Positions 1-64,000 of a stretch of DNA of 64,000 nt are shown here, piece by piece; the stretch's first letter is position 1, and each line of letters starts with the position of its first letter. The DNA lies in IMG/VR virus record IMGVR_UViG_3300020388_000010; one strand, 5' to 3'. This stretch comes from a virus (Duplodnaviria > Caudoviricetes). The position numbers and the translations under genes are program-made. A model generated the notes under the pieces. That model saw only the letters and a list, made by a program, of their open reading frames with translations, was not told where the DNA came from and ran no database searches.

Positions 1-90
1 ATCTATCAACAAGCGTTAGATGAAATCACTAAGTTAGAAGAAGAAATGAAACTAGGATTTGAGTTACCAATAAATTATATGGTAGGATAA
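1..90 (+). CDS. gp13: Neck protein gp13, C-terminal fragment (truncated by window start)
   Basis: Frame 1 reads IYQQALDEITKLEEEMKLGFELPINYMVG*, typical of the gp13 C-terminus; directly upstream of gp14. Confidence 0.8.
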   Translation: MYQQALDEITKLEEEMKLGFELPINYMVG

Positions 91-93
91 GTT

Positions 94-1263
94 ATGGCAG
101 TCAACAAATTTTTTCACGACAGTAATAAAACTTCTATATCTGCCGAGAGAAACTTATATAAAAATCTAATCAAAGAAGCTATCCAGATTCACGGACACGA
201 TGTCTATTATGTAAATAGAACATTTGTAAATGAAGATACTTTATTTGGTGAAGATACATCTTCAACTTTTTCTGAATCACAACTTATAGAAATGTATGTA
301 GAAAATGCAGAAGGTGGTCTTGAGGGTGAGAAAGAATTAGTATCAAAGTTTGGTTTAGATATCAAAGATGAAGTTACCTTTGTCGTAAGTAAAGAAAGAT
401 TTCAAGACATAACAAAACAAGTTGTTTTAGAGTCTGGTACTACTGAAACTTTTGGTGCAGTATTATTAGAAGATGAAACAACTACAAGTGAAAGTGCATA
501 TCTTGTAAATGAAGATGAATCTACTGATGCAGATAGACCTTTAGAGGGTGATTTAGTTTTTCATCCTATTATTAATAAAATGTTTGAAATCAGTTTTGTT
601 GACCACGATGAACCTTTCTTTCAATTAGATAACAATCCAGTTTATAAATTAAAATGTAGATTATTTGAATATGGTAGTGAGGGTCTTGATACTGGTGTAA
701 GTGCGATTGACCAAATAGAAACTGATAGTAGTTTAGATGCACTTTCATATCAATTCACATTAGAACAAACTGGAACATACACAGAAGAAATTTCATTAGA
801 AGATAATGATTTATTATTATTAGATAGAACAGATGGTAGTGATTCTGATGCTGGTGATAATTTAATTTCTGAAACACAGTTTGGTGCAAGTTCTATATTA
901 CTAGAAACTGCTGATACTTATTACATTACAGTTAAAGATGAAACTGGTGCGTTTGAATTAGACGAAGTTATCACTGGTGCAAACGGTGGACAGGCTTATA
1001 TTAAGTTAATAAATAGTAACACATTACACTTTGAATATATAACTGGAACATTTGCAAAAGATGAAGTTATTACTGGTAGAAACAATGGGTTTACTGCAAC
1101 AATAACTGAAATGAAAGAAGAAAATCATTATCTAATTAATGAAGAATATAATGTAGATACTATTGATGAAAAATCTCAGATTGAAGATTTTGAAAACTTA
1201 GATAATACAATATTAGACTTTAGTGAATCAAATCCATTTGGTGACGCTGGGAAGGAAACATAA
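94..1263 (+). CDS. gp14: Neck protein gp14 with acidic internal/C-terminal extension
   Basis: EAIQIHGHDVYYV, SKFGLDIKDEVTFVVSKERF, RPLEGDLVF, FEISFVDHDEPFFQL, terminal ILDFSESNPFG. Confidence 0.9.
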   Translation: MAVNKFFHDSNKTSISAERNLYKNLIKEAIQIHGHDVYYVNRTFVNEDTLFGEDTSSTFSESQLIEMYVENAEGGLEGEKELVSKFGLDIKDEVTFVVSKERFQDITKQVVLESGTTETFGAVLLEDETTTSESAYLVNEDESTDADRPLEGDLVFHPIINKMFEISFVDHDEPFFQLDNNPVYKLKCRLFEYGSEGLDTGVSAIDQIETDSSLDALSYQFTLEQTGTYTEEISLEDNDLLLLDRTDGSDSDAGDNLISETQFGASSILLETADTYYITVKDETGAFELDEVITGANGGQAYIKLINSNTLHFEYITGTFAKDEVITGRNNGFTATITEMKEENHYLINEEYNVDTIDEKSQIEDFENLDNTILDFSESNPFGDAGKET

Positions 1264-2063: not shown

Positions 2064-2082
2064 ATAAGAGTAGGAGAATAAA

Positions 2083-3335: not shown

Positions 3336-3340
3336 GTAAA

Positions 3341-5239
3341 ATGTCTGATACTAAAGTAAACAGCAATATGATTGAAGAATCTGGTAAAGTTAGTTCTGGA
3401 CAGATTCAACCTAATTCAATTTCAACTGCTGATATAACAAACTCATCAATTACTAATAGTGATATCTCTCCATCAGCTGCAATCGCATTAAATAAATTTA
3501 GTTTGCCTGGAAGTTCATCAGATTTTTTAAAAGGTGATGGAAGTTTTGGTACTGTTGATTTAAGTGCAGTAGGTACTAATGCATTTAATGTTGGTGTGTT
3601 AGGTTTTAAACTCGCAGTCAATGAAGGACTCACTATTTTTAATCTTGTTGATGGTATCGTAGACGAATTTAATAGTGAAGGTGGTATTGATACTGGCGAA
3701 AACTCAAACGCATCTTACGAATCAGCATCAGATTTTTATCAAAATTTATCACCAACGCCTGGTGTTGCAATGCATCTCGGTGTAGATGCAGTTACATTTG
3801 AAAACCCAGAACACGCACCATTAATTACATACACTTCTCAAGAAGCTACATTCGGTGCATTTGGAACTCAAGGTAGTATAACATTTCCCACATTAACAAC
3901 TTCAATAGAAGCAACTATGGTTGGTGCTGGTGCTGGAAACAATAGTCAAGGTTCTGGAGGTTCTGGTGGTAGTGTACAAGGTACAATAGCAAGTCCATCA
4001 ATCGCTGGTGCTACTTGGGATTATGTTGTAGGTGAAGCTGGTGTTGGCCCACAATACAGTACCCCCCAATATCCAAGTGGAGATATAGGTGCTACTGGTG
4101 GTTATGGTGGTGGTGCTTATGGTGCTATTGGTGGAGGTGGTGGTTTTACTGGAATTTTTGATGGTGAAGTTACAATTATAGAGGGTGGTACATATGGTGA
4201 AACTGGAAATTATCATACACCAGGCACACCTAATAATTATCCATTTGAGGGCCCAGGTTTTTCAGATACAGTTTCTCCAACTAATGCTAGTGAAGCAGTT
4301 TTAATTGTAGGTTCTGGTGGTGCTGGTGAAAATTCAAACGGTGCTCCAGCAGCACAAGGTGGTGGTGGTGGATTTACTGCTGGAACTAATGGTTCTGGTG
4401 GTTTTAGTGTACCTACTGCTAGTTCTGGTGGTACTAATGCATCTGGTGGGGGTGCAGACCAAGAAGCAAACGGACATTTAGGGGCATATCCAGTTGGTGA
4501 AATTTCTGGAGGAGGCCCAGCAGAGTGGACACAAGAATCTCCACACCCAGATGCAATACATTTTCAAGGTGGTGGAATGATGTACCCACCTTATCACTAT
4601 GGTGGTGGTGGTTCTGGATATCACGGAGGTGGTGGTACATCTGACCCAGGCGGTTATACTGGTGGTACTGGTGGTGGTTCTGGATATTCAAATCCTACAT
4701 ATGTTGCAACTCCATCTTTAGAATATGAAACAGCAGTTGGTAGTGCATCAAATCCTACTCCATTAAGTGTATTTGACGAAGCACCATATTATACTGGATT
4801 GCCTTCACCAAGACAAGCACTTTTTGCTGATGGAGCTAGAGGTGAAGGGGCAACTAGTGGTGCTACAAATACTGGTGGTGATGGTGGTATTCTTTTAGTT
4901 TTTGATGCTGGTTCAAGTTCAACAAGTATGACTTTAGTATCAGATACATTTACTGCGAGTGCGACACCATCTACTTCAAGAGTTGTGTTGTTTGCAGAAA
5001 TAGCAGATGATTTAAATACTGATGTTGCAATATCAGTAACAAGAGATAATACAACATACAATTCAGTATCATTAACTGATACTGGTTTTGTAAGTGGTTC
5101 AAGTGGTATTAAAATATATACTGGTAGCACACCTTTAACTGGAAGTGCTAGTCCACAAGTTCAGATGAGGTGGAAAGTTGTTGGGTCATCACTTACTGGT
5201 ACAAATAAAATTCACGGAGTTGCACTACAATGGGCATAA
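3341..5239 (+). CDS. Glycine-rich fibre/receptor-binding-like protein, paralogue 1
   Basis: Conserved N block (AFNVGVLGFKLAVNEGLTIFNLVDG), Gly-rich centre, conserved C block ending KIHGVALQWA. Confidence 0.7.
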   Translation: MSDTKVNSNMIEESGKVSSGQIQPNSISTADITNSSITNSDISPSAAIALNKFSLPGSSSDFLKGDGSFGTVDLSAVGTNAFNVGVLGFKLAVNEGLTIFNLVDGIVDEFNSEGGIDTGENSNASYESASDFYQNLSPTPGVAMHLGVDAVTFENPEHAPLITYTSQEATFGAFGTQGSITFPTLTTSIEATMVGAGAGNNSQGSGGSGGSVQGTIASPSIAGATWDYVVGEAGVGPQYSTPQYPSGDIGATGGYGGGAYGAIGGGGGFTGIFDGEVTIIEGGTYGETGNYHTPGTPNNYPFEGPGFSDTVSPTNASEAVLIVGSGGAGENSNGAPAAQGGGGGFTAGTNGSGGFSVPTASSGGTNASGGGADQEANGHLGAYPVGEISGGGPAEWTQESPHPDAIHFQGGGMMYPPYHYGGGGSGYHGGGGTSDPGGYTGGTGGGSGYSNPTYVATPSLEYETAVGSASNPTPLSVFDEAPYYTGLPSPRQALFADGARGEGATSGATNTGGDGGILLVFDAGSSSTSMTLVSDTFTASATPSTSRVVLFAEIADDLNTDVAISVTRDNTTYNSVSLTDTGFVSGSSGIKIYTGSTPLTGSASPQVQMRWKVVGSSLTGTNKIHGVALQWA

Positions 5240-17840: not shown

Positions 17841-19181
17841 ATGTTTCAAACAACACATTTACAAGAGAAGTGGCAGCCCGTTCTAGACCATCCAGATTTA
17901 CCAAAAATCAATGATAGTTATAGAAGAGCCGTCACTACTGTTATTTTAGAAAATCAAGAAAAGGCACTTAGAGAAGATGCTTCTTTCTTGTCAGAATCAG
18001 TTCCTACTAACGCAACTGCAGTTGGTGCTAATCCAATGGCAAATTGGGATCCGATCCTAATTTCATTAGTAAGAAGAGCTATGCCTAATTTGATTGCATA
18101 TGACATTTGTGGTGTGCAACCAATGACTGGCCCAACTGGTTTAATCTTTGCTATGCGTTCAAGATTTGATGACCAGTCTGGTGCAGAAGCACTAGTTGAT
18201 GAAGCAGATGGCGAACATTCTGCTGATAACTCATCATCTTCACTGACAGCTGCACAACAAGGTACTAACCCAAGTGTACTTAATGACTCTCCAGAAGGCG
18301 CTTATACTTTCGCACAAGGTATGACTGCTGCACAAGCAGAAGCATTAGGTGATAGTTCTCAAAACCACTTTGCACAAATGGCTTTCTCTATTGAGAAATC
18401 AACTGTTACTGCAAAGTCTAGAGCACTTAAAGCTGAGTACACAATGGAACTTGCACAAGACTTAAAAGCAATTCACGGTCTTGATGCAGAAACAGAACTT
18501 GCAAACATCCTTTCTGCTGAAATTCTTGCAGAAATCAATAGGGAAGTAGTAAGAAGAATTTACAGAACTGCCGTAGAAGGTGCTGCTGTAAATACAACTA
18601 CTGCTGGTACTTTTGACTTAGATACAGACTCTAACGGTAGATGGTCTGTTGAAAAATTCAAAGGACTAATGTTCCAGATTGAAAGAGATGCAAATGCAAT
18701 CGGTCAAAAAACTCGTAGAGGGAAAGGTAACATCTTACTAGTAAGTGCTGATGTTGCTTCTGCTTTACAAATGGCTGGAATTCTAGATTACCAATCTGCA
18801 TTAAACAACAACCTACAAGTTGATGACACTCAAAACACTTTTGCTGGTGTATTGAATGGTCGTTACAGAGTATATGTTGACCCATACGCTGCAAATGTAG
18901 CTGCAAGTCAATATTATGTTGTTGGATATAAAGGTACTTCACCTTATGATGCTGGTACTTTCTATTGCCCATATGTTCCACTACAAATGGTGAGAGCAGT
19001 TGGTGAGCAAACTTTCCAACCTAAAATCGGTTTCAAAACTAGATACGGTATGATTGATAACCCATTCGCAGTTGACGCTGGTGCGTTAGCTGATAACAAC
19101 GATGCTGGTTCTTCAAATACTGCATTTACTAAAGAAACTAACCAATATTACAGAAGAGTTAAAGTTTCTAACTTAATGTAA
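17841..19181 (+). CDS. gp23: Major capsid protein gp23
   Basis: LVRRAMPNLIAYDICGVQPMTGPTGLIFAMR, KSRALKAEYTMELAQDLKAIHGLDAE, FQPKIGFKTRYG. Confidence 0.98.
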   Translation: MFQTTHLQEKWQPVLDHPDLPKINDSYRRAVTTVILENQEKALREDASFLSESVPTNATAVGANPMANWDPILISLVRRAMPNLIAYDICGVQPMTGPTGLIFAMRSRFDDQSGAEALVDEADGEHSADNSSSSLTAAQQGTNPSVLNDSPEGAYTFAQGMTAAQAEALGDSSQNHFAQMAFSIEKSTVTAKSRALKAEYTMELAQDLKAIHGLDAETELANILSAEILAEINREVVRRIYRTAVEGAAVNTTTAGTFDLDTDSNGRWSVEKFKGLMFQIERDANAIGQKTRRGKGNILLVSADVASALQMAGILDYQSALNNNLQVDDTQNTFAGVLNGRYRVYVDPYAANVAASQYYVVGYKGTSPYDAGTFYCPYVPLQMVRAVGEQTFQPKIGFKTRYGMIDNPFAVDAGALADNNDAGSSNTAFTKETNQYYRRVKVSNLM

Positions 19182-24885: not shown

Positions 24886-25071
24886 ATGTTTAGTTTTATA
24901 ACAAATTTATTTAAACCAAAACCAAAAAAGATTTCAAAGTCAAGACTTATGACTATGACTAAGAGAGAGTTAGAGAATGTAGGTCGTAAACACGGTATTG
25001 AATTAGATAGAAGATATCTAAAAGATGACCTTGTTGAACAACTTTGGAAACATATAAATGGAAAGAAATAA
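24886..25071 (+). CDS. Small basic hypothetical protein (Rho-N/HeH-like)
   Basis: AAGGAG RBS; MTKRELENVGRKHGIELDRRYLKDDLV. Confidence 0.55.
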   Translation: MFSFITNLFKPKPKKISKSRLMTMTKRELENVGRKHGIELDRRYLKDDLVEQLWKHINGKK

Positions 25072-25502
25072 TGTATGAATATAAATGTGAAATTGTCAAG
25101 ATTGTGGACGGCGACACTATTGATGTCAATATTGATTTGGGTTTCGGTACTTGGATTCATAATGAACGAATACGCCTCTATGGAATTGACACACCAGAAT
25201 CAAGAACAAGAGACTTGGAAGAAAAGAAAGCTGGTCTGTACGCAAAAAAGTGTGTGGAAGGATTTATGCCAGTGGGTTCAAGTCAAGTCTTAATGACAAA
25301 GAAAGATAAGTCTGGTAAGTTTGGTAGGGTCTTAGGTGACTTTATAATCTATGATGGACAAGAAGATAGAAATATGGGTATCGTTGAGTATATGATAAAA
25401 CACAATATAGGTGTTGAATATAATGGACAATCCAAACAACAGATTCAAGAACATCACTTACAAAATAGACAATATTTAAAATCACAAGGCGTAATAGATT
25501 AG
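25071..25502 (+). CDS. Thermonuclease (SNase-like)
   Basis: KIVDGDTIDV, RIRLYGIDTPESRT, GKFGRVLG. Confidence 0.88.
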   Translation: MYEYKCEIVKIVDGDTIDVNIDLGFGTWIHNERIRLYGIDTPESRTRDLEEKKAGLYAKKCVEGFMPVGSSQVLMTKKDKSGKFGRVLGDFIIYDGQEDRNMGIVEYMIKHNIGVEYNGQSKQQIQEHHLQNRQYLKSQGVID

Positions 25503-26582: not shown

Positions 26583-27119
26583 ATGGTTGATATAGTTCCG
26601 AATGTTGTTTTTAAAACAAGAGTAAAAGATAATGATTGCACGGATTGTCCAAACCCATATAAGTGGGAAGATAAATCTACTGATGATTATTTTAGTGGTA
26701 AGAAAGTTGTTTTGTTTTCTTTGCCTGGTGCATTTACACCAACTTGTTCAACATATCAATTACCAGATTTTGAAGCTATGTATTCACAGTTTAAAGAAGA
26801 AGGAATAGATGACATTTATTGTATGTCTTGTAATGATGCATTTGTAATGAACAAATGGGCAGAACAACATAGTTTAGAAAATGTTAAAGTTATACCAGAT
26901 GGTAATGGAGATTTTACTTCTGGAATGGGTATGTTAGTTAAAAAAGAAAATTTAGGTTTTGGTGATAGGTCGTGGAGATATGCGGCTATAATAAATGATA
27001 AAAACATTGAACATCTTTTTATTGAACCAAACAAAAAAGATAATGCAGATGATGACCCATATGGTGAAACCTCACCACAAAATATACTTCAGTATATTAA
27101 AAGTAATAAAGGAAAGTAA
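26583..27119 (+). CDS. Peroxiredoxin (Prx5 type)
   Basis: FSLPGAFTPTCS, NDAFVM, PDGNGDFT, RSWRYA. Confidence 0.92.
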   Translation: MVDIVPNVVFKTRVKDNDCTDCPNPYKWEDKSTDDYFSGKKVVLFSLPGAFTPTCSTYQLPDFEAMYSQFKEEGIDDIYCMSCNDAFVMNKWAEQHSLENVKVIPDGNGDFTSGMGMLVKKENLGFGDRSWRYAAIINDKNIEHLFIEPNKKDNADDDPYGETSPQNILQYIKSNKGK

Positions 27120-27120
27120 A

Positions 27121-29715: not shown

Positions 29716-29947
29716 AAAATACATACACATAAATCAACACAAGATTCGTGCAAATAAAAAACACGGAACAAATGAAGCAGTAATTACTATTAAAGAAGGT
29801 CGTAAAAATACTTATTGTCATAGTGTTGAAATACTAGGCCCATCTAAATTATTTTATGGTGGTAATGATAAACCAATTCTACCTTGTGGTGCAAGAGTTG
29901 TTATTGAAACAGAAAGTGATTTAAAGATTGATAATAAAGACTATTGA
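29708..29947 (+). CDS. Conserved phage hypothetical protein
   Basis: IHINQHKIRAN...CGARVVIET, recurrent in marine phages. Confidence 0.65.
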   Translation: MTKKYIHINQHKIRANKKHGTNEAVITIKEGRKNTYCHSVEILGPSKLFYGGNDKPILPCGARVVIETESDLKIDNKDY

Positions 29948-39762: not shown

Positions 39763-42252
39763 ATGGATTTTTATACTAATGTAGTGCAATGGGGTAATTT
39801 TCTTTTAGTTCGTGGTGTTGATAAAAATCAAAGAGTAAGTTTTAGATTAAAATACAAACCAACTTTGTTTGTTCCAGTAATGAAACAAACGGATTGGAAA
39901 ACTCTTGATGGTAAATCAGTAACACCATATCAATTTGATTGTATAAAAGATGCAAAGGACTTTTTTCTCAAATACGAAAGTCAGCCTCATCTTGTTCACG
40001 GACTAAACAGATTTGCATACACATATATTTCAGATACATTTCCACAGAAGGTAAACTGGAACATTGATAAACTATTAATTATGACGATTGATATTGAGGT
40101 TCAATGTGAGAATGGTTTTCCTAATCCAGAATCTGCAATAGAACCTTTACTTTCTATTACAGTTAAAGACCAACAATCTAAAAAAATTATAGTGTGGGGT
40201 ATTCAACCTTACGAGAATACAAGAGAAAATGTTACTTATATTCGTTGTCCTAACGAACACGATTTGATTATGGAGTTTATGTCTTTCTGGACAAAGAACT
40301 ATCCAGATGTTATTACTGGTTGGAATACAGACTTCTTTGATATTCCTTATCTTGCAAATAGAATCAAACAAGTTTGTGGTGAAGATAAAATGCGAGAACT
40401 ATCACCTTGGAAAAATGTTAGTGCAAGAAAAATATATAGTATGGGTAGAAATCATTTGATGTATGACATTATGGGTGTATCTCAATATGATTATTTACAA
40501 CTCTATCAAAAGTTTACTTACACCAGACAAGAATCATACAAGTTAGATTATATTGCAAGTGTAGAGCTTGGTGAAAAGAAAGATGAAAATCCATACGAAA
40601 CATTTAGAGAGTGGTATGAAAAAGACTTTCAATCTTTCATTGATTATAATATTCAAGATGTGGAAATAGTTGACAAACTAGAAGACAAGATGGGTTTGAT
40701 TGACCTTGCACTTACTATGGCCTATGAGGGTAAAGTAAATTATTCAGATGTGTTTGGTCAAGTTAAATATTGGGATATTTTAATCTATAACTTCTTGAGA
40801 AAAAGAAAGATTGTTATACCACAGAAAAAGTCTTATAACAAAAACGAACAATATGAAGGTGCATATGTAAAAGAACCGATTACTGGTTTACATAAGTGGG
40901 TTGTATCATTTGATTTGAATTCACTATATCCACATTTAATTATGCAATATAATCTCTCACCAGAAACATTATTGAAAAGTAAACATCAAGACATTACAGT
41001 TGATGATATGTTAAAAGGTATTAAACTAGACATACCAGATAGAACTACTATGACACCAAATGGTGCATTGTTTAGAACAGATAAAAAAGGTTTCTTACCA
41101 ACTATGATGGAAGAGTTATACAATGAACGAGTGACTTACAAAAAGAAAATGTTATCTGCACAACAAGAATTTGAAAACACAAAAGACAACAAGTATAAAA
41201 AACTGATAAGTCGTTATAACAATATTCAGATGGCTCGTAAGATTTCTTTGAACTCTGCTTATGGTGCAATAGGTAATCAATATTTTCGTTATTACGATAA
41301 AGCGATTGCAGAGGGTATTACAAAGAGTGGTCAATTATCTATTCGTTGGATTGAAAACAAACTTAACAAATATCTAAACAATGTTTTAAAAACAGATGAT
41401 GATTATGTGATTGCATCTGATACCGACTCTGTTTATTTGACTATGGATAAACTTGTTAGTGAAACAATTAAAAGTGATAATGCACTTAGTAAAACAATAA
41501 ACTTTCTAGACAAGGTTGCATCAGAATCTATTGAACCATACATTACAAAATCGTATGACGAACTTAAACAATACACAAATGCATATGCAAATAAGATGTT
41601 TATGAAACGAGAAGTGATTGCAGACAAAGGTATTTGGGTTGCAAAGAAAAGATATATTCTAAATGTTTGGGATAGTGAAGGTGTATCATACAAAGAAGCA
41701 AAGTTGAAGATGATGGGTATTGAAGCTGTCAAGTCATCAACGCCTGCAATGTGTAGACAAAAGATTAAAGATGCACTTGAACTTATAATGACAAGTGATG
41801 AAAAAGAATTAAACAAGTTTGTAATTAATTTTAGAGAAGAGTTTCTTAAAGTAAAACCAGAATTGATTTCGTTTCCTCGTTCAGTAAATGGTTTATCAAA
41901 ATACTTTGATAGTGGAACAACATTTAAAAAGTCAACACCTATGCATATCAAAGGTGCATTGATATACAATCATAAGATAAAACAAAATAAACTTATAAAC
42001 AAATACCCTTTGATACAAGAGGGTGATAAGATTAAGTTTGTTTATTTAAAACAACCTAATCCATTTACTTCAAATGTAATCACATACATTACTAAACTTC
42101 CTAAAGAATTTGATATACACAGTTTTGTTGATTATGATATACAGTTTGAAAAAGTTTTCATTGACCCCTTGACATTAATTTTAAATAGTATAAAATGGAA
42201 TATAGATAGAACTTATGGAACACAAGGTAACTTAGAGGATTTTTTTGGGTAA
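39763..42252 (+). CDS. gp43: Family B DNA polymerase gp43
   Basis: DIEV exo I, SFDLNSLYPH, KISLNSAYGAIGN, SDTDS, KKRY. Confidence 0.98.
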   Translation: MDFYTNVVQWGNFLLVRGVDKNQRVSFRLKYKPTLFVPVMKQTDWKTLDGKSVTPYQFDCIKDAKDFFLKYESQPHLVHGLNRFAYTYISDTFPQKVNWNIDKLLIMTIDIEVQCENGFPNPESAIEPLLSITVKDQQSKKIIVWGIQPYENTRENVTYIRCPNEHDLIMEFMSFWTKNYPDVITGWNTDFFDIPYLANRIKQVCGEDKMRELSPWKNVSARKIYSMGRNHLMYDIMGVSQYDYLQLYQKFTYTRQESYKLDYIASVELGEKKDENPYETFREWYEKDFQSFIDYNIQDVEIVDKLEDKMGLIDLALTMAYEGKVNYSDVFGQVKYWDILIYNFLRKRKIVIPQKKSYNKNEQYEGAYVKEPITGLHKWVVSFDLNSLYPHLIMQYNLSPETLLKSKHQDITVDDMLKGIKLDIPDRTTMTPNGALFRTDKKGFLPTMMEELYNERVTYKKKMLSAQQEFENTKDNKYKKLISRYNNIQMARKISLNSAYGAIGNQYFRYYDKAIAEGITKSGQLSIRWIENKLNKYLNNVLKTDDDYVIASDTDSVYLTMDKLVSETIKSDNALSKTINFLDKVASESIEPYITKSYDELKQYTNAYANKMFMKREVIADKGIWVAKKRYILNVWDSEGVSYKEAKLKMMGIEAVKSSTPAMCRQKIKDALELIMTSDEKELNKFVINFREEFLKVKPELISFPRSVNGLSKYFDSGTTFKKSTPMHIKGALIYNHKIKQNKLINKYPLIQEGDKIKFVYLKQPNPFTSNVITYITKLPKEFDIHSFVDYDIQFEKVFIDPLTLILNSIKWNIDRTYGTQGNLEDFFG

Positions 42253-43444
42253 TTATTTTAGATATACATTAGACGATTTAGAAAAGTCTGCAAATAGAAA
42301 ACTATTTAATTTTATCAGCTTCTTTGCTGGTGGAGGTGGTTCTTCTTGTGGATATAAATTATCTGGTGGTGAATGTTTATTTGTAAATGAGTTTCAACAA
42401 GTTGCAGTAAATGATTATCTTGCAAACTTTCCAAACACACAACATATCTGTGGTGATATTAAAAATGTCACTGGTCAAAAGATTATGGAAATGACTGGAT
42501 TAAAGCCTGGTGAGTTAGATATATTAGATGGTTCACCACCTTGTCCACCATTTAGTATGTCTGGTACAAAACAAAAAGGTTGGAATCAAGAAAAAACTGC
42601 ATATGGTATGAAACAAAAAAACATTGAAGATTTAACTTGGGAACAAATTAGAATTGTTGGTGATTTAAAACCTAGAGTTGTTGTTTGTGAAAATGTTAAA
42701 GGTTTAACAATGGATTATGCAAGAGATCATTTAAATAGAATGGTTAAAGATTTTGAATCACACGGATATCATACAGTATGGAGAGTTTTAAAAGGACACG
42801 AACACGGAGTTCCACAAAAGAGAGAAAGAGTTTTTATAGTATCAGTTAGAGAAGATGTATTAGATGATATAGGTTTACCTTTTATGTGTTTAGATAGTTC
42901 TATATTTCCAGACCCAAAAGAAGAAAGATATAATATTAAAGATGCAATATATGATATACAAAAGACAAATAAAAATATATCTGAAGCATTTGAATTAAAA
43001 GAGTCTATGAAGAAAAGTGCTAAATATAAGTGGTTAAAAAGATTACAAAAGAATCCAGACAAAGTTATGTCTGTTGGTGATGATGTTGTCGGGCCTTGGT
43101 ATAGAAAAGTAATTGAACATAGAAAGAAGTGGGGTAAAAGTGAATGGAAAGAAAAACATAGTTTTTATCAATCAAGAAGAGTGCCTTGGAATCAACCAAG
43201 TCATACTCTATCAGAACAAGGATTAAGACAATCTCTTGCAGTTCATTTACACCCAGAAGAAGATAGAGTTTTTACTACTATTGAGGCTGCAAGAATAATG
43301 ACATTACCAGAAGATTATAAACTTGTTGGTAAATTAGATGACAACCTTGCGAGGATAGGGTTGATGGTTGCACCTTTACAATTACATTATCTATCAAAAA
43401 AGATTTATGAAAATATCCTAAAACCATATAAGGAGACAAAATGA
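42245..43444 (+). CDS. DNA (cytosine-5) methyltransferase (TTG start)
   Basis: Motif I FAGGGG, IV GSPPCPPFS, VI ENVKG, VIII PQKRERVF, IX/X EAARIMTLPEDY. Confidence 0.93.
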   Translation: MGNYFRYTLDDLEKSANRKLFNFISFFAGGGGSSCGYKLSGGECLFVNEFQQVAVNDYLANFPNTQHICGDIKNVTGQKIMEMTGLKPGELDILDGSPPCPPFSMSGTKQKGWNQEKTAYGMKQKNIEDLTWEQIRIVGDLKPRVVVCENVKGLTMDYARDHLNRMVKDFESHGYHTVWRVLKGHEHGVPQKRERVFIVSVREDVLDDIGLPFMCLDSSIFPDPKEERYNIKDAIYDIQKTNKNISEAFELKESMKKSAKYKWLKRLQKNPDKVMSVGDDVVGPWYRKVIEHRKKWGKSEWKEKHSFYQSRRVPWNQPSHTLSEQGLRQSLAVHLHPEEDRVFTTIEAARIMTLPEDYKLVGKLDDNLARIGLMVAPLQLHYLSKKIYENILKPYKETK

Positions 43445-44421
43445 AAAAAATAGTATTAGAAAAAGATTATGGTAAGAAAGAAACATTTGAAAAATGGAAT
43501 GGTAAATTCTTAGATGATTCATCTTATGATAAAGTTTACAAAGTTACACAAAAAGAAGATTTAGGAATAATGAAACCAGTAAGGTCATTAGATGGTTCTG
43601 ATGTTCCCCTTGCATATGTTGTAAACAATGTATATCCTAATGATGATATTAGAGATGTTCTCACAACAATAGAAGATACATCTACAATGAGAGCAAATTG
43701 TTCTGGGCCTATTGATAAAGAAGAAATGAAGAAAAAAGGTTTGATAGAGGGTGAACATTATAAATTAAGAACACCAAACTCTTATTATGTAAAAACCAAA
43801 TCTGGTAAATGGGGTATGATTGCATACAGTAATGAAATACATTCAGTAATGATAGGATATAAAAGAGGAAGATTTACTGGTGCAATAGATTCATCTGGTT
43901 GGTGTAAAGATAATAAAGAGAGATGGGAAAGACTTCAAGAGATATCTAAATGGAATGAGATTGCATTTAAGAAAGCAAACGAACAAGTATACAAATCTCA
44001 AAAGAGTTTTGCAGATAATAACATAAAACCAGAACATAGAGTTGGTGGTGGTATATTTACAACACTTTCTGCAAATAGATATTCTGCATATCAATCTACA
44101 AAGATGTCTGCACATATTGATAGTGGAGATACAGATGCTGGACTTACATCAATGTGCGTTTTCAGAGAAGGTGATTATGAGGGTGCATACTTAGTGTTTC
44201 CTAGATATGGAGTTGCTCTTGATGCACCAGATAACTCAGTAATCATTGCAGATAGTAATGAAGTACACGGAGTTACAGAGATAAGAGGTTCTGGACAAAG
44301 GTTTAGTTGTGTTGCATATTGTGATAGAAGACTCGCAACAGTAGGTGTTTATGGTAAACAAGAAAAACTTATTGGTAAGTATGCAGCTAAAGAAAGTGGA
44401 AACTTAGAAGAATTTATGTAA
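43441..44421 (+). CDS. TET/JBP-family 5-methylpyrimidine dioxygenase
   Basis: FTTLSANR, HxD in AHIDSGD, GAYLVFPRYG, HGVTEI, RFSCVAY; coupled to a C5-MTase. Confidence 0.82.
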   Translation: MKKIVLEKDYGKKETFEKWNGKFLDDSSYDKVYKVTQKEDLGIMKPVRSLDGSDVPLAYVVNNVYPNDDIRDVLTTIEDTSTMRANCSGPIDKEEMKKKGLIEGEHYKLRTPNSYYVKTKSGKWGMIAYSNEIHSVMIGYKRGRFTGAIDSSGWCKDNKERWERLQEISKWNEIAFKKANEQVYKSQKSFADNNIKPEHRVGGGIFTTLSANRYSAYQSTKMSAHIDSGDTDAGLTSMCVFREGDYEGAYLVFPRYGVALDAPDNSVIIADSNEVHGVTEIRGSGQRFSCVAYCDRRLATVGVYGKQEKLIGKYAAKESGNLEEFM

Positions 44422-44525
44422 CTACACATTTTGCAGACCCTTATATAGTGGTATTATTGAGAGAGTGTGTTATATTAAAATAGAATCACAATTAAGTGAT
44501 ATCCATTAAAACAAAAGGAGTTAAG

Positions 44526-45512
44526 ATGGAAATTAAAAAAAAGGCAATATCAGCCTCAGAAGAAATATTAGGATTTAATCCTAAATCAAAAGAAGAAGAT
44601 ATCTTTAGAGTTGTAATGACACCAAAAATGGCAAGGTATATTCTTAATAATCATAATAAACATAACAGAAAGTTTGTTCCAGCTCAATTAAAAGCAATAA
44701 ACCTTAGTGTAGACAGACATAACTGGTTACACACTGGTGATACTTGTGCATTTGATACAACTGGCAATTTAACTGAGTTTCAACATAGACTAGAAAATAT
44801 TGCAGCTGAAAGAAAAAACAGAGTTGTTTGGATTGCAACTGGTGTTAGAAAAGATAGTTTTGAAAAGGCTGCACCAGCAAAAAACCGAACTAAGTTTGAT
44901 GTTGTATGGCGTTATGAAAAAAGTGCAACAAAAGATGAGGTCACTACCTTAGAACAAGTTTTAAGAATGAGAAAAGGGAAGGACAAACAATCTATTGATA
45001 CCGAAACTTTAACAATGGTAAATGCACTAAGTTTATTTAGAGTATGGAAAGAATATATTCGTATAGGTATGAACATAACCAATAAATTTTTTGAAGATAA
45101 AAAAGTTAGAAGATTTTTACCTTGGCAAAGAATTTTAAATGCTTGGGCAACAATTTTAGTCTTTCAAGGTAAAGATGAAATACCAAAAAACTTTTTATCA
45201 CTACTTAAAACTCATCTCACAACAACAAAAAAAGTTCAACTCTTTACAGAAATGAATGAGTATTTTCTTGGAGATGAGGGTAAAGGTGTCGGTTGGATTA
45301 CTGGAACAAAAAAATCTGAACAGATGTTTTATATGTTATGTAAAGCCACAGATAGATTTTTAATCGCACCAGAAGGTGATTGTGAGTTCGGTTTAAGTCT
45401 TGCAGAATCTAATCACACAAATATGCTTCAACAGAGTTCAACTTATAGAAGTTTTTTAATGAATCCTCAAGGATTAAAATTAAAAACTAAAAACATAGTA
45501 ACTTTATTTTAG
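44526..45512 (+). CDS. ParB/Srx-like (DGQHR-like) domain protein
   Basis: AAGGAG RBS before ATG 44526; TPKMARYIL..NR..W..TGD..FD..GNLTEFQHRL. Confidence 0.55.
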   Translation: MEIKKKAISASEEILGFNPKSKEEDIFRVVMTPKMARYILNNHNKHNRKFVPAQLKAINLSVDRHNWLHTGDTCAFDTTGNLTEFQHRLENIAAERKNRVVWIATGVRKDSFEKAAPAKNRTKFDVVWRYEKSATKDEVTTLEQVLRMRKGKDKQSIDTETLTMVNALSLFRVWKEYIRIGMNITNKFFEDKKVRRFLPWQRILNAWATILVFQGKDEIPKNFLSLLKTHLTTTKKVQLFTEMNEYFLGDEGKGVGWITGTKKSEQMFYMLCKATDRFLIAPEGDCEFGLSLAESNHTNMLQQSSTYRSFLMNPQGLKLKTKNIVTLF

Positions 45513-45515
45513 ATT

Positions 45516-46040
45516 ATGATTATAATGATTAGTGGTATACCTTGCTCTGGCAAAACCACATTACTTAAATCTATAATAAAAGACTTGGGTTCATATGAAA
45601 ATTGTGAACCCACTTCTTTATTTAAATGTCAAAAATTTAAAGATGTTCTTGTAATAGGTCAATATCCAGAAAATGAAACATTTGGTGGTACTGACAGATT
45701 ATCATATGGAACAATTAGTAAGTTTCAAGATTTTATAAACACACAATCAAAACAATATAAACACATTATCTTTGAGGGTGATAGGTTCACAAATAATATT
45801 GAGTGGGTACTTGACAAACACCAAAGTATAGTGTATATTCTAATAGTAAGCTATGAAGAAGAAAATAAAAGACACACTTTGAGAAAAGACAATCAAAGTG
45901 AAACTTGGTTAAAAGGAAGAAGAACCCAAATAGACAATATACAAAAGAATTTAAGTCTTATGGGAAGATTACAGATTAGAGATACTTCAGATGGTATCAA
46001 TACTGTAAAGGGTGAAATTATGGAGATACTGAATGCCTGA
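45516..46040 (+). CDS. P-loop nucleotide kinase-like protein
   Basis: [11 protein letters not shown]...[15 protein letters not shown]. Confidence 0.7.
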
Positions 46041-47073
46041 TTTTTTAAAAGAAGTTATCAAAACAACTGGTAACGAATATGCATCATTAGTTTCAGACGG
46101 AGTTGGAGCTGGTGATGTAGATGAATTTATTGATACTGGGTCATATGCTTTAAATGCATTATTATCTGGTTCAATAAATGGTGGACTTCCAGCAAATAAG
46201 ATTACTGCAATCGCTGGTGAAAGTGCAACTGGTAAAACATTTTTTCTGATGGGTATGTGTAAAAACTTTCTGGACAAAAATCCAGAGAGTGGTGTCATAT
46301 ACTTTGAAAGTGAAAGTGCGATTACTAAACAAATGATTATTGATAGAGGTATTGACCCATCAAGAATGGTTATACTTCCAGTAACAACAGTACAAGAATT
46401 TAGAACTCAATCATTGAAAGTTCTAGATAGCTATATTAATCAAGAAGAATCTATTCGTAGACCATTATTTCTTGCATTAGATTCACTTGGTATGTTATCA
46501 ACAACAAAAGAAGTTGAAGATACTGCTGAGGGAAAAGAAACAAGAGATATGACTCGTGCTCAAGTTCTTAAAGCTGCATTTAGAGTGTTGACTTTAAAAC
46601 TTGGTAAAGCAAAAGTACCTATGGTTGTAACGAATCACACATATGATGTTGTTGGTTCTATGTTTCCAACAAAAGAAATGGGTGGTGGTTCTGGATTAAA
46701 ATATGCAGCTTCTTCTATTGTATATCTTTCTAAAAGAAAAGAAAAAGAAGGAACAGAAGTTGTAGGTAATATTATACATTGTAAAAACTTTAAATCAAGA
46801 CTTACCATTGAAAACAAAATGGTAGATGTTAGACTAACATATAATAAAGGTCTTGATAGATATTATGGATTACTTGAACTTGCAGAAAAATATAAAGTAT
46901 TCAAAAAAGTTTCAACAAGGTATGAATTACCAGACGGTTCAAAACAATATGGTAAAACTATATTGAATGACCCAAAGAAATATTTCACTAAAGATGTTAT
47001 GGCCATCTTAGATGAATGTGCAAAAAAGGAATTTAGATATGGTGGAACAGAAAGCGTTGAAGAAAGCGAATGA
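46033..47073 (+). CDS. uvsX: Recombinase UvsX (RecA-like)
   Basis: [39 protein letters not shown]. Confidence 0.96.
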
Positions 47074-58625: not shown

Positions 58626-60146
58626 ATGAGTTTATGGAGTATGAATGATGGCTCCGCTTTATCTGGTACTCACACTTACACGAATGGAAGTGCGATTGTA
58701 CAAGCTAATGCAAGTGGAGCATACAAAACCGAAGTAAAAATCGGTGATGTAGTTACTACAGCTGGTGGAGAAAAAGTGAGAGTAAAAGACCTTACACCAC
58801 CTAGAACAGTTGCTACATCTGCTGTAAACGCAAGTAATGAAAGAATTACCATTACTTCACACGGATATACTGCAAACACACCACTCACATATAGTGCAGC
58901 TGGTGGAACTGCAATCGCTGGAATCACAGACGGACAAATCGTATTTGTTAAAACTGTTCACGATGCAAACACAATAGATGTATCTGCAACAGAAGGCGGT
59001 TCAGTAATTAATATAACTGGAACTGGTAATAATTCACAAACATTTATTGGTGAAACAAATACTGGTATGACATTAACATCTGATTTTGGTGGAAGCACAG
59101 AAAGTGGTGTTGCCGCAACTGTATCAAGACCACCAATAAACGGACACGGTGGAACTATTGATAGCACCGTATTTGGTATAGATGAAGGTGAATCTGTTGC
59201 TGGTGTTGATAATGTGACTGATATTGCATTAACATCAACTACTGGTGCAAGATATGTACAAGCACCAACTATTACTGTTGCAGGGCCAACTGCAAGAGTT
59301 CTTACAACTGCAAATGTTTCACTTGCAAACGATACATTTACCATTACAGGCCACAATATGAGAACTGGTACATCTATAACTTATAATAGTCAAGGTGGAA
59401 CTAATCTTGCACAAAATAGTGGTAACATTACAGATGATACTGAATTATTTGTTATTCGTGTAGATGCAGACACTATTAAGTTAGCAAGTTCACTTTCTAA
59501 TGCAGAAGCTGGTACTGCACTTGATATGACTGGTGGTTCTGGTAATGTTGGTAATAACTCACAAACATTAACTGGTACTACTGCAACTGCAACTGCAACA
59601 GTTTCTGGTGGAGCTGTTTCTGCAATTACTGTAACAGCAGTAGGTTCTGATTATCAATCTACACCAGCTGTAACAGTTGAAGCACCAAAAATGACAATTC
59701 CAACTGGTAATGTAAATGCTGGTACTAATGTAATCACATTTACTGGACACGGACTAACAGATGCTGACCAAATCACTTACAACCAAGTAGGTGGTGGAAC
59801 TTTAATGACCAATGTAACTAACGGACAAACTGTATTTGTTAGAGATAAAACTGACGATACCTTTAAGATTGCAGCTACTGAAGGTGGAACTGCGATTAAC
59901 ATTGGTACTGGTCATAGTGCTCAAACATTTACTATTGTAACTGGTGCAACAACAGCAACTGCTGTAGCTTCAACTGGTTTAGGTAATGACGGTGATAGTA
60001 ACACCACAGAACTTAGCCATGTAGGTTGGGTTAAGAAAACAGTAGGTACTGGTGGTCGTGCTGGTAGAGTTCAATATGAAACTCTAGTTGCTGCTTCAAG
60101 TATTTCTGGTGATGCTGCTGATGATATCGCACTACCAGATAGCTAG
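58626..60146 (+). CDS. Virion structural/decoration protein with three repeated beta domains
   Basis: Repeats ITITSHGY/FTITGHNM/ITFTGHGL; C-terminal HVGWVKKTVGTGGRAGRVQYETLVA. Confidence 0.7.
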   Translation: MSLWSMNDGSALSGTHTYTNGSAIVQANASGAYKTEVKIGDVVTTAGGEKVRVKDLTPPRTVATSAVNASNERITITSHGYTANTPLTYSAAGGTAIAGITDGQIVFVKTVHDANTIDVSATEGGSVINITGTGNNSQTFIGETNTGMTLTSDFGGSTESGVAATVSRPPINGHGGTIDSTVFGIDEGESVAGVDNVTDIALTSTTGARYVQAPTITVAGPTARVLTTANVSLANDTFTITGHNMRTGTSITYNSQGGTNLAQNSGNITDDTELFVIRVDADTIKLASSLSNAEAGTALDMTGGSGNVGNNSQTLTGTTATATATVSGGAVSAITVTAVGSDYQSTPAVTVEAPKMTIPTGNVNAGTNVITFTGHGLTDADQITYNQVGGGTLMTNVTNGQTVFVRDKTDDTFKIAATEGGTAINIGTGHSAQTFTIVTGATTATAVASTGLGNDGDSNTTELSHVGWVKKTVGTGGRAGRVQYETLVAASSISGDAADDIALPDS

Positions 60147-60406: not shown

Positions 60407-60423
60407 ACCATAGGAGATAAAAT

Positions 60424-61061: not shown

Positions 61062-61492
61062 TGATAGATTTTAAACAGTATATTACTGAACTAAAGGGAA
61101 CAAAACCCGCTAACTCTAATGCACAACACGACTCCGACCACGATATGGTTGATGTGTCTGATGATGGTGTTGTTAGAAAACTTAATTCATTTTTGGGTTG
61201 TATTGCCGAAATGGATCATATGTTACCAGAACAAACTATTAGTGTTGTGAGAAGAAGACTTGCAAGTATTGGATTAACATTTCCAAATATTGATGTAGTA
61301 GAAGATTCTGGAAACATATCTGCACCGTTAACACAATTCGGTGGTAGATTTGGTAAAGACATTGACACACCTCACAATGAGTTTGTTAATGATGATGGTA
61401 TTTCACATAGAGTTGAAGGTGGTCGTTCCATTAATTTTGTTTATGAAAAAAAAGAAAATGGAAAATTCAAGGTCACTGCCGAAATTAAATAA
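61061..61492 (+). CDS. Hypothetical protein with capsid-targeting-like N-terminus
   Basis: MIDFKQYITE; LTQFGGRFGK. Confidence 0.65.
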   Translation: MIDFKQYITELKGTKPANSNAQHDSDHDMVDVSDDGVVRKLNSFLGCIAEMDHMLPEQTISVVRRRLASIGLTFPNIDVVEDSGNISAPLTQFGGRFGKDIDTPHNEFVNDDGISHRVEGGRSINFVYEKKENGKFKVTAEIK

Positions 61493-61854
61493 TGTTTGAG
61501 AAAATAACTGTTGATAATGTTATGATGTATGCGATGAAACATTATAATAATCCTCAAGGGGATAATGAAAAAGAATTTCTTGATGATATGAAGAGATTCA
61601 AATATATTAAGAGATTGTTGAGAAAATATCAAGACAATGGGCCTTTGAAAGAACGATTGATTTTAAATCACATAATTGTTTTAAATAATGTCTTTGGTGC
61701 AGATGCGTGTTCAACACTTTTATTATTTAAATTAGAAACTTCGTTATGGAAATATATAAAACCATTTATGGAATTTTTAAAAATTCTTCCAGAATGTGAG
61801 TTAAAAAATATAGAGAATGACGAAAAAGTAGAAAGTATTTTAAGGAATATTTAA
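61492..61854 (+). CDS. Conserved T4-like marine phage protein
   Basis: YAMKHYNNP, EFLDDMKRFKYIKRLL, ERLILNHIIVLNNVFG. Confidence 0.75.
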   Translation: MFEKITVDNVMMYAMKHYNNPQGDNEKEFLDDMKRFKYIKRLLRKYQDNGPLKERLILNHIIVLNNVFGADACSTLLLFKLETSLWKYIKPFMEFLKILPECELKNIENDEKVESILRNI

Positions 61855-62492
61855 TGGGAACTGCGATAGATTTATTTGTAACTTATAGGTTTATTAAATT
61901 ATTAGTAACACCTTTTGAAAAAACTGATGCATTTAAACTTGGTATTATTAACGAAAAGGGTTTACGACAAGTCGTGCCTGGAACAACAAAACCAACACCT
62001 CTTTCAACAATCAAAGAAAGAAATGCATATACTGTTCTCCACAAGTTAGTATTCAATATTAAAAGAATTTTTGCAAGAGTGCCTGGACTAGGTTCTAAAG
62101 TTGGAACTTATGCAGCTGCACTTTTTTTATTAAAGGACACATTCAAAGAGGGTGTTGACCCTAAAATGTTTGAAAGAGAATTTTTAAAGTTTATAAAAGA
62201 AAATGATATTAAACTAGATGACACGATTACTGAAGAAGTTGATTTAGTTGATGGAAAATTACCAAAAGGTGTTTATAAACTGTCAAATGATATTATAAAA
62301 GATGATGATGAAGACATACCATTACTAAAAAAAGATGATGATGTGGAAACATTAGAGGACACATTACCATCTGATACAGTATTAGGTGTTCCAGTTTTTG
62401 CAGTCCTACATACTAATAGTAATAGTAAGATTTTTGTAAGTATGGATGATATTGAACCAGTATCAGTAGAAGATGCATTAGGAGAAATTTAA
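61854..62492 (+). CDS. Conserved T4-like marine phage protein
   Basis: DLFVTYRFIKLLVTPFEKTDAFKLGII, YTVLHKLVFNIKR, YAAALFLLK. Confidence 0.75.
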   Translation: MGTAIDLFVTYRFIKLLVTPFEKTDAFKLGIINEKGLRQVVPGTTKPTPLSTIKERNAYTVLHKLVFNIKRIFARVPGLGSKVGTYAAALFLLKDTFKEGVDPKMFEREFLKFIKENDIKLDDTITEEVDLVDGKLPKGVYKLSNDIIKDDDEDIPLLKKDDDVETLEDTLPSDTVLGVPVFAVLHTNSNSKIFVSMDDIEPVSVEDALGEI

Positions 62493-64000
62493 TGGATAAG
62501 AAAAAATATGTAAGAGTAGACCCTTTCACTGGATTCCCAGAGAAAGATGTAAAAGAAGATGCACCGACAACATCTACTGCTGGTGTTGCAGCCACTGGTG
62601 ATGACCCAACAGTTGTTATGAAAAAGAAAAAGAAAAAATTATATGATGGTAGAACATCTATTGCAAAGAAATTTGTTGAAAGAATATTAAAACAAAGAGA
62701 AGCAAGGAGAGTTGCAGAAGAAGTTGAACTTGAAGAAAAAGTAAAACAACCTAGACAATTAATTAATCCAAGTAAAGAAGCTATGGTTGTAAAAAATAAT
62801 AAAGTTATCGTAGTTGATAAAAAAGATTTAAAACAATACACATCAAAAGGTTGGTCTCTTGCAGAAGATATTGAACTTGATGAAATGCGAGGTATATATG
62901 TTGTTCGTAATGATAATGGTAGAATGATTGCAAAAAATAAAAACAGAAATGCGATTGATAAAGAGAGAAAAAAGTACGAAACACAAACTGGTAACAAAAC
63001 TACAATGAATATTGAAAAAGAACCAGTTCCAGATTTAAAAGAAGGCACTGAACTTGAAGAGGCACTAAAACCAAAAGATAAAAAAGTTGTAGATGCATTT
63101 TATGATGGTAAATCTATGAAAGGTGATACACTATCCACAGATGGTAAAAAACTAGAAAAAAGTGGTTTGGGTGCTCAAACTATTGCAACTTCATCTGGTG
63201 GCAAATTTAAGGTTGTTGCAAAGATGGACGGAAAACATACTCAGTCAGTAGTTTCATATATTAAAAAATCATTTCCTAAAAATGTAGTAGAAGAGATTAC
63301 AGAAGGAACTATGGCTAGTGGTCTTTTTTCAAATAACCCAGAAACATCAAACAAATCTGGTTATGAATTAACTAAGTTTTTTAAGAAAAAACCTAATGCA
63401 AAACAAGCATATGATTTTGTAGATAGACACATTCCAGATGATGAATTAGGTGATGATATAGCTGCACTTGCTGGTGAATTAGATGATGCACCAGGCAGAT
63501 TGAAAGACTTTCCATATAAAAAACAAAAGAAAGCATATAGTAAAATTGACCCAAGAAGTGTTGTCTTAAATAGACTTGCAGATTTTACTGATGACAAAAA
63601 TGCAATGTTGTTAGTTAAAACACTTATGAATATGGGTGTTAAACCAATTAAATTAGGTACTGGTAGGGCTGGTAAAGGTGAGTATGACCCTATAAAGATG
63701 AAAATTAATCCTAGTAAAATAGATGCAATCTTAAAAAAATTTGGTGTGTCAGACCCCAAACAAATTACATTCAAGGAAGAAACAATGGAAATAACAGAAG
63801 AAGTTATGACACTTAAAACAAAAGATAGTGTTATGGGACTTAAAGTATTTAATGGTGCAAAGGGTTTAGGTTTAAAAGCTGCACTCTTAGGAAAATATGT
63901 AAGAGTTAAAGGTAGTAAAAAACAAGTAAACGATTTTGGAAGAACAGTTATTGGTAAATCATCAATGGGTAGTCCTACTGAATTAAATCCCCCTCAACTA
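62492..64000 (+). CDS. Large modular polyprotein, open to window end (absent from ORF track)
   Basis: AGGAG RBS; MDKKKYVRVDPFTGF...; no stop in 503 codons; linkers EEVELEE, EDIELDE, EGTELEE, VEEITE, ETMEITEE. Confidence 0.8.
   Translation, partial: MDKKKYVRVDPFTGFPEKDVKEDAPTTSTAGVAATGDDPTVVMKKKKKKLYDGRTSIAKKFVERILKQREARRVAEEVELEEKVKQPRQLINPSKEAMVVKNNKVIVVDKKDLKQYTSKGWSLAEDIELDEMRGIYVVRNDNGRMIAKNKNRNAIDKERKKYETQTGNKTTMNIEKEPVPDLKEGTELEEALKPKDKKVVDAFYDGKSMKGDTLSTDGKKLEKSGLGAQTIATSSGGKFKVVAKMDGKHTQSVVSYIKKSFPKNVVEEITEGTMASGLFSNNPETSNKSGYELTKFFKKKPNAKQAYDFVDRHIPDDELGDDIAALAGELDDAPGRLKDFPYKKQKKAYSKIDPRSVVLNRLADFTDDKNAMLLVKTLMNMGVKPIKLGTGRAGKGEYDPIKMKINPSKIDAILKKFGVSDPKQITFKEETMEITEEVMTLKTKDSVMGLKVFNGAKGLGLKAALLGKYVRVKGSKKQVNDFGRTVIGKSSMGSPTELNPPQL

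Follow-up and report, generated by a model that had tools for sequence, protein, structure and literature searches.

We analysed a window of 64,000 nucleotides from the IMG/VR virus record IMGVR_UViG_3300020388_000010, with regard to a DNA cytosine-C5 methyltransferase (MTase), its neighbouring TET dioxygenase, and the restriction-type words that the genome avoids or tolerates. The source is a marine T4-like myophage related to the OM43 phage Melnitz and the pelagiphages Mosig and HTVC008M; the nearest relatives of its gp23 region are the Pelagibacter phages Mosig and HTVC008M and the Methylophilales (OM43) phage Melnitz, at ~70-77% nucleotide identity. The window has a G+C content of 32.2%, and every called gene is on the + strand. 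Four genes, encoding the MTase, the TET protein, a protein of 338 amino acids (aa) and a P-loop kinase, stand between the gp43 polymerase and uvsX:

39763-42252, + strand: gp43-type family B DNA polymerase (Pfam PF00136/PF03104), directly upstream of the MTase
42245-43444, + strand: DNA cytosine-C5 methyltransferase (PF00145, E 8e-55), with the catalytic SPPC, ENV and QKRER motifs intact
43441-44421, + strand: TET/JBP-type 5-methylpyrimidine dioxygenase (PF12851, 44.5 bits, cut-off 34.9)
44439-46022, + strand: swappable cassette between TET and uvsX, delimited by comparison with a close relative (G001)
44496-45512, + strand: 338-aa gene (phrog_5931, function unknown)
45516-46040, + strand: P-loop nucleotide kinase (PF18751, E 8e-6, slightly below the cut-off)
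46033-47073: uvsX, the downstream boundary of the module region

The region has the make-up of the clade II/B modules described by Burke et al. in 2021, in which a DNA polymerase lies upstream of the methyltransferase and a kinase or glycosyltransferase follows the TET gene (PMC8256090). It combines C5-MTase motifs with an adjacent TET protein bearing the HxD...H iron triad and the 2-oxoglutarate-binding Arg, and it has the polymerase upstream of the MTase and the P-loop kinase downstream of the TET gene, whose start overlaps the MTase stop. An alignment of eight lineages shows H225-x-D227, H276 and R287 of the TET protein to be invariant. MTases of clade II/B act on GpC[C/T] and those of subclade IIb on GpCN, while the TETs act on Gp5mC[C/T], where 5mC is 5-methylcytosine (PMC8256090). 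The closest solved homologue of the MTase is SpCmoX of Synechococcus phage S-B43 (PDB 8YF3; aligned with E 2e-69), a GC-specific C5-carboxymethyltransferase whose mark blocks HhaI (PMC12783734). GSPPC, CENV and QKRER are present in the window enzyme, which thus has the SPPC motif in common with SpCmoX. However, CmoX moves a carboxymethyl group from carboxy-S-adenosylmethionine and needs R350 (GRMVPP) to bind that group, and the window enzyme has Leu at this position (GLMVAP). By the criterion of PMC12783734, it is therefore not a carboxymethyltransferase; the Leu fits a TET neighbour that needs 5mC, and a methyl donor is expected.

An earlier note on this DNA had proposed that modified GpC shields sites from host restriction, and had called for codon-aware word counts and for a comparison of relatives with and without the MTase-TET pair. 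We compared all counts with 300 synonymous-codon shuffles, which leave all encoded proteins and the overall codon usage unchanged. These counts bore out the flank bias. The note had seen about 50 CCWGG sites, all but one touching a GpC; the raw count in the window is 56, with a 5' G or a 3' C on 55. Its estimate of 30% for the chance level of such a flank was too high, as the shuffles and module-less relatives give ~18-20%. Bare CCWGG (HCCWGGD) occurs once against 45.4 +/- 3.1 expected, while GCCWGG (30 vs 5.6) and CCWGGC (27 vs 4.3) are in large excess. GGWCC is missing, as the note had said (0 vs 35.3), and GGSCC is enriched (38 vs 4.9). In contrast to these shifts, the totals stay at expectation for both CCWGG (56 vs 55) and GGNCC (38 vs 40). 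The sole CCWGG with neither flanking base is still abutted by GCC, with C4252 directly 5' of the site:

4253-4257, + strand: CCWGG without 5' G or 3' C, read as GGC-CCA-GGT

The preserved totals have a coding explanation. Since Pro is CCN and Gly is GGN, CCWGG and GGNCC cannot be removed synonymously at Pro-Gly and Gly-Pro, and the CCWGG total stays at expectation because 53 of the 56 sites are such unavoidable, in-frame Pro-Gly dipeptides; Gly-Pro likewise accounts for 35 of the 38 GGSCC. Among the 53 Pro-Gly sites, the preceding codon ends in G at 27, Gly is GGC at 24, both hold at one and neither at one. Gly before Pro is always GGS (35/35; GGG 20, GGC 15) and never GGT or GGA, just as the earlier note had observed, although these two make up 90% of all Gly codons in the window. 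CCA-GGC is used 18 times and CCA-GGT twice. The same note was right that His before G is written CAC (71, vs CAT 1), and that the W-D-P of gp23 accepts GATC over GGACC. There the choice is forced: GAC would create GGACC, and GATC is tolerated. These two places read as follows:

18045-18053, + strand: gp23 W-D-P, TGG-GAT-CCG
60018-60021, + strand: the only CATG in the window, CAT-GTA (His-Val)

A set of other words is purged. CATG occurs once against 102 expected, GATC 9 times against 149, and TCGA (0 vs 74), ACGT (0 vs 86), CCGG (0 vs 17) and CGCG (no occurrence) are absent, in agreement with the near absence of TCGA, ACGT and CCGG and the rarity of GATC that had been noticed by eye. CAATTG (0 vs 30), AGTACT (0 vs 19), CTTAAG (0 vs 10) and CGWCG (0 vs 10) are lost as well. 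The words that cannot be shielded, namely GGWCC, CATG, GATC, TCGA, ACGT, CGCG, CGWCG, CAATTG, AGTACT and CTTAAG, are purged, and those that can (CCWGG, CCGG-type words, GCGC and CCTG/CAGG) persist only with GC[C/T] overlapping or abutting them. The claim that GC-centred palindromes are abundant held in part: TGCA is enriched (550 vs 394), AGCT is below expectation (109 vs 156), and the raw count of GGCC is 50 and that of GCGC is 6. AATT is also depleted in the window (565 vs 774).

The genome fits restriction-site avoidance in that short palindromes are depleted against a codon-preserving null and the depleted set differs among related phages. Classical palindrome avoidance in phages likewise involves strong depletion against codon-aware expectation, with a depleted set that varies by lineage. 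Here, however, avoidance is conditional: a word is tolerated precisely when the phage's own modification motif overlaps it, and Pro-Gly and Gly-Pro sites, which coding makes unavoidable, are given new flanks instead of being lost.

In the window's lineage, the CCWGG rule is part of a broader loss of the asymmetric 4-mer CCTG/CAGG, which occurs 93 times against ~300 expected and is rarer in all contexts but GCCTG/CAGGC. We know of no enzyme of CCTG/CAGG specificity. The survivors comprise 69 in GCCTG (24.2 expected), 13 in CCTGC[C/T] (29.6), 9 in CCTGGC (4.3) and 1 in GCCCTG (1.6); none has a GpC solely as GCA or GCG (0 vs 43.9), and a single one has no neighbouring GpC at all (1 vs 196.3). GC[C/T] thus stands in or against 92 of the 93, with examples at 5389, 6044, 7004 and 59281. 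CAGGT is found 3 times in the window against 132 expected. Because every CCWGG contains CCTG or CAGG, the two rules are confounded within the window. CCTG avoidance is, however, confined to the window's MTase cluster and one other (the L015 group), and CCWGG/CCGG is therefore a target in its own right.

We next consider relatives with and without the module. From 223 MTase relatives in IMG/VR, 80 loci were sampled (713 kb, 72-97% amino-acid identity), and lineages were taken as 18 MTase clusters at >=90% identity. Cultured Melnitz has homologues of both the MTase (76%) and the TET protein (78%), whereas the C5-MTase/TET module is absent from Mosig and HTVC008M. The second gene set used for this comparison has 54 Pro-Gly sites in the window, 53 of them shielded. 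The shielded:bare ratio at Pro-Gly is accordingly 53:1 in the window; it is 25:0 in the close loci, 140:1 in other module-bearing loci and 69:0 in Melnitz, vs 13:36 in Mosig and 6:39 in HTVC008M. Pooled, this amounts to 287 shielded and 2 bare sites with the module against 19 and 75 without it (Fisher p = 1e-58). The same contrast holds at conserved orthologous Pro-Gly sites, which are shielded at 6/6 in the window and 6/6 in Melnitz vs 3/6 in Mosig and 0/5 in HTVC008M. Gly before Pro is GGS 250 times and GGW 15 times with the module, and 0 and 37 times without it. Furthermore, the module-less OM43 podophages MEP401 and MEP301 avoid neither CCWGG nor GGWCC. A survey of C5-MTases in the family around one search hit (3 of 29 genomes) was left out, as that family cannot be linked to OM43. 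The proposed comparison therefore favours the earlier note: the Pro-Gly rule is obeyed in 18/18 MTase clusters and is absent from Mosig, HTVC008M, MEP401 and MEP301.

The flank rule extends to the A-less words CCGG and GCGC. In three module-bearing groups, HCCGGD is found 7 times vs 190 expected, 0 vs 52 and 0 vs 24, while GCCGG/CCGGC stands at 52 vs 84 and 15 vs 27. Either flank serves: among CCTGG-type sites, 59 have the G side only, 47 the C side only, 27 both, and 4 are bare. Double shielding is enriched (27 vs 3.9 and 16 vs 1.4 expected). The CCGG/CCNGG rule is invariant over the 18 module-bearing lineages, whereas the other purged words depend on lineage. Avoidance of CATG, TCGA and ACGT is confined to the window's MTase cluster, GATC is avoided in 6 clusters, and GGWCC avoidance is relaxed in 6 small clusters. 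Such differences between lineages are as expected of changing host restriction repertoires.

Cyanophage S-B43, taken as a positive control for footprints of GC marks, lacks the shield rule. In a 50-kb sample of its genome (L093, 120001-170000), neither CCWGG nor GGWCC is avoided, and the avoidance that exists is outright: CCGG 1 vs 44, GGCC 10 vs 33, AGCT 46 vs 141 and GGSCC 0 vs 9. In Mosig, the gene beside the DNA polymerase (L084:1-232), in the place of the C5-MTase, is annotated as an adenine methyltransferase; modification genes may generally occupy this slot.

The base 3' of the GpC matters, and here the earlier proposal was only partly right. Cytosine modification at GpC does explain the survivors, but the sequence evidence suggests that the protective word is GC[C/T] and not every GpC. 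GCATG/CATGC, which contain a GpC, are absent (0 vs 25; GCATG alone 0 vs 15). In CCTGCN, the in-site cytosine (bottom strand GCAGG) is identical for all N, yet survival depends on N, which points to GC[C/T] instead of GCN: without another shield, CCTGC[A/G] is found 0 times vs 44 expected and CCTGC[C/T] 13 times vs 30, with 40% Y expected. All six GCGC sites of the window are R-GCGC-Y, and in module-bearing genomes GCGC is depleted before A but close to the expected number before C or T. Moreover, only module-bearing genomes show depletion of words containing GCT/AGC and an excess of TGCA, and their share of GCA among Ala codons is 0.60-0.68 vs 0.42-0.50. TGCA reads GCA on both strands, so its high count is probably the reverse of a shielding effect; TGCA is probably unmodified, and its excess needs another explanation. 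The TGCA excess and GCT depletion could reflect either a cost of the modification or decay of methylated GCT.

Taken together, these data make it likely, in our judgement, that a GC[C/T] mark laid down by the MTase and TET proteins shields coding-forced sites, that words which cannot be shielded are purged, and that host nucleases are the selecting force. By analogy with characterised homologues, the polymerase-linked C5-MTase would methylate the cytosine in GC[C/T] after replication, and the adjacent TET protein would oxidise the methyl group to 5-hydroxymethylcytosine (5hmC). The swappable cassette, with its 338-aa gene and P-loop kinase, may then elaborate 5hmC further. Such a mark would reach only a minority of cytosines, and synonymous changes across the genome would have made this enough. 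Nuclease words unable to carry the mark would be purged. CCNGG forced by Pro-Gly, GGNCC forced by Gly-Pro, and residual CCGG, GCGC and CCTG would be written in a way that puts a modified GCC inside the site or next to it, by means of a preceding codon that ends in G, Gly as GGC, or GGG-CC and GGC-CC. The selecting nucleases would most likely be Type II restriction enzymes of the host population, and the purged words may be a reading of its repertoire, which would then include activities against CATG, GATC, TCGA, ACGT, CGCG, CAATTG, AGTACT, CTTAAG and a CCTG-type word. In this account, the counts, the rule at forced sites, its confinement to module-bearing genomes and its dependence on the base 3' of the GpC are observations; the chemistry (from characterised homologues), the blocking of cleavage and the identity of the nucleases we infer.

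Several points weigh against this reading. At 95-99% identity to the window, the close loci (L001-L007) and G001 do not count as independent evidence. The contrast between genomes with and without the module is confounded by host, as the module-less myophages infect SAR11, and a Mom-like gene also tracks the module (present in the window and Melnitz, unseen in Mosig and HTVC008M). S-B43 has a proven GC-directed mark without the shield rule, so the rule is not general to GC marks. AGCT, which is GCT on both strands, is depleted in several module-bearing lineages despite its presumed modification; we attribute this to the general GCT/AGC depletion. The use of GGSCC for GGWCC may be plain avoidance, since it needs no shielding if the enzyme is GGWCC-specific. 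Finally, the CCGG/CCNGG rule is invariant in 18 diverged lineages while host repertoires otherwise vary. This invariance, together with module-less OM43 phages that show no CCWGG pressure, means that a host-driven cause must assume that the module is kept only where such enzymes are met.

The last point leads to an alternative that we regard as rather unlikely, namely that shielding works as proposed but the phage clade itself supplies the agent behind the invariant CCGG/CCNGG rule (perhaps GCGC as well). This agent could be, for example, a nuclease of the phage that destroys host DNA lacking the mark and takes the GC[C/T] modification as "self". Chloroviruses use their own restriction-modification pairs in such a self-marking fashion. 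The rule is present in 18/18 lineages while every other purged word varies, and neither the OM43 podophages MEP401 and MEP301 nor the SAR11 myophages show it; a staphylococcal-nuclease-like gene (25044-25502) is common to the window and Melnitz. Additionally, just one type II methylase is mentioned for the host H5P1 in the Melnitz paper (PMC9004378). However, no conserved site-specific nuclease candidate lies near the module in the 80 loci, SNase-type enzymes are non-specific, and a nuclease with sites that the phage's own MTase cannot fully protect is unlikely to evolve. Relaxed GGWCC avoidance in 6 lineages indicates that this part, at least, depends on the host, and the association is explained, with no need for a phage nuclease, if the module is kept only where phages encounter C5-sensitive enzymes. 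The stricter form, in which the invariant core is imposed by the phage clade and GC[C/T] hypermodification is the self-mark for a phage-borne nuclease, we think quite improbable; if true, a T4-like phage would carry its own form of restriction-modification logic and would have recoded its genome accordingly. Unlikely, too, is that every GpC is modified and that GCATG, CGCG and CCTGCA are lost only because the enzymes that cut them ignore a C5 group placed there. CATG-type enzymes usually have adenine methylases as partners, which accords with this idea. So does the finding that the clade IIb MTases of Burke et al. methylate GpCN, and SpCmoX recognises GC with no 3' preference stated. Against it, survival of CCTGCN follows N though the in-site cytosine is constant, survival of GCGC requires a 3' Y, and GCT depletion and TGCA enrichment are confined to module-bearing genomes; even in clade IIb, the TETs hydroxylate Gp5mC[C/T] only (PMC8256090).

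Two explanations dispense with the cytosine mark or with nucleases, and we give each very little credence. Adenine modification by the Mom-like protein in a CAGGC-like context could yield the flank rule: the family match is strong (E 3e-53), and the distribution of the gene follows that of the module, as described above. Mu Mom has the target context S-A-S-N-Y, which GCCTG, read as CAGGC, fits. Nevertheless, the rule also covers CCGG and GCGC, which lack A and T, and both CCWGG flanks protect (59 G-CCTGG only vs 47 CCTGG-C only). CAGGT, which is S-A-S-N-Y as well, is depleted (3 vs 132), with CCA-GGT used 2 times and CCA-GGC 18 times. On this motif logic we rejected Mom as the cause of the footprint. 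The other explanation involves no nuclease selection, but codon-pair or translational preference or a mutation bias such as deamination of methylated cytosine. The general GCT/AGC depletion and the shift of Ala to GCA could indeed be mutational; however, orthologous genes of Mosig and HTVC008M, of similar composition and encoding the same proteins, lack the bias, and the purged words are nearly all restriction-type palindromes depleted to zero. Rare codons (GGC, GGG, NNG) are brought in at just the Pro-Gly and Gly-Pro positions, and mutation bias cannot put G or C selectively beside CCWGG. A restriction enzyme that recognises HCCWGGD itself was also rejected, as CCGG, GCGC and CCTG share the G/C flank exemption.

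The preferred model, a sparse GC[C/T] mark made sufficient by genome editing, differs from known systems in several respects. As in T4 itself, with its hydroxymethylcytosine and glucosyl-hydroxymethylcytosine, a T4-type phage would here use a C5 modification of cytosine as a defence against nucleases. In T4, all C is exchanged through the nucleotide pool ahead of replication and no site editing is needed, whereas the mark proposed here would be post-replicative, limited to GC[C/T], and complemented by purging and re-flanking. Virus-encoded orphan C5 methylation systems also include the multispecific methyltransferases of Bacillus phages SPR, phi3T and rho11s and, at GpC, the chlorovirus M.CviPI. 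The SPR methyltransferase protects GGCC, CCGG and CCWGG. The SPR, phi3T and rho11s enzymes methylate the restriction words themselves; here the short word GCY would be modified and the genome edited to overlap it. A rationale for GCC is its ability to overlap the CCNGG and GGNCC made unavoidable by Pro-Gly and Gly-Pro. The modules of Burke et al. share the polymerase/C5-MT/TET/kinase order and a marine virome origin and act in the GpC[C/T] context to which the footprint points here, but were defined by enzyme activity in E. coli from short contigs, with the biological role left open; here phage genomes, including that of cultured Melnitz, show a codon-level footprint tied to the mark.

These genomes bear on a doubt raised by the discoverers of the phage MTase/TET pathways, who deemed broad anti-restriction protection unlikely for a GpC-limited mark (preprint 10.1101/2023.12.21.572611) and suggested regulatory roles. 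The evolutionary evidence is that, across 18 lineages, coding-forced CCNGG is placed on GC[C/T] and words that cannot be shielded are purged. Sequence alone thus suggests that a sparse DNA mark protects against cutting, and the pattern offers a way to read both a modification motif and the nuclease specificities it blocks directly from genomes. The enzymology is known; as far as our searches show, the literature describes neither a conditional footprint at the codon level nor its association with the module across the clade. Direct tests could use Melnitz and its cultured host, OM43 strain H5P1, which is also the host of the OM43 phage Venkman.

The putative tailoring step is mobile. G001 (IMGVR_UViG_3300047475_000019) is 96-99% identical to window positions 15428-60931 apart from 44439-46022, where it has 4.0 kb instead (compared at L174:14556-18395). 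Of the four different genes in this insert, one is cytidylyltransferase-like (PF01467). In other lineages, the TET gene runs directly into uvsX with no cassette. The footprint is unchanged whichever cassette is present, or none. The 338-aa gene has no Pfam match at E <= 10 and no tblastn match in the 80 IMG/VR loci, Melnitz, Mosig and HTVC008M; no homologue was found in a 98%-identical relative either. Atlas gives only a weak ParB_N lead, and a single-sequence AlphaFold2 model is unusable (predicted local distance difference test, pLDDT, 34). In Melnitz and further loci, homologues of the P-loop kinase (56-62%) lie downstream of the module. The P-loop kinase is a candidate 5hmC kinase for the tailoring step, in line with the role proposed for such kinases in PMC8256090.

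A second candidate DNA-modification system of this T4-like marine phage, on the evidence of its family match, is the Mom-like gene:

29928-30722, + strand: Mom-family protein (PF25680, E 3.2e-53, 180.8 bits, profile positions 3-197 of 202)

This full-length match lies above the gathering score. By tblastn, the protein is 63% identical to a Melnitz gene product annotated as DUF465 and 32% identical to Mu Mom, and it was not detected in Mosig or HTVC008M. Mu Mom belongs to an adenine-modifying family; here the gene occurs in a T4-like marine phage alongside a cytosine system, and it does not explain the footprint.

Three further genes on the + strand were noted outside the module. The staphylococcal-nuclease-like protein at 25044-25502 (PF00565, E 3e-6) is encoded between gp55 and gp47; its Melnitz counterpart is gene 158, and the syntenic 50 kb of Mosig and HTVC008M gave no match. 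A PstS-type phosphate-binding protein at 26995-28092 (PF12849, E 4e-41) was found neither in Melnitz nor in the Mosig and HTVC008M samples, and is 55-65% identical to many proteobacterial PstS proteins. A DUF932 protein at 34415-35368 (PF06067, E 2e-40) is common to the window and Melnitz (gene 221).

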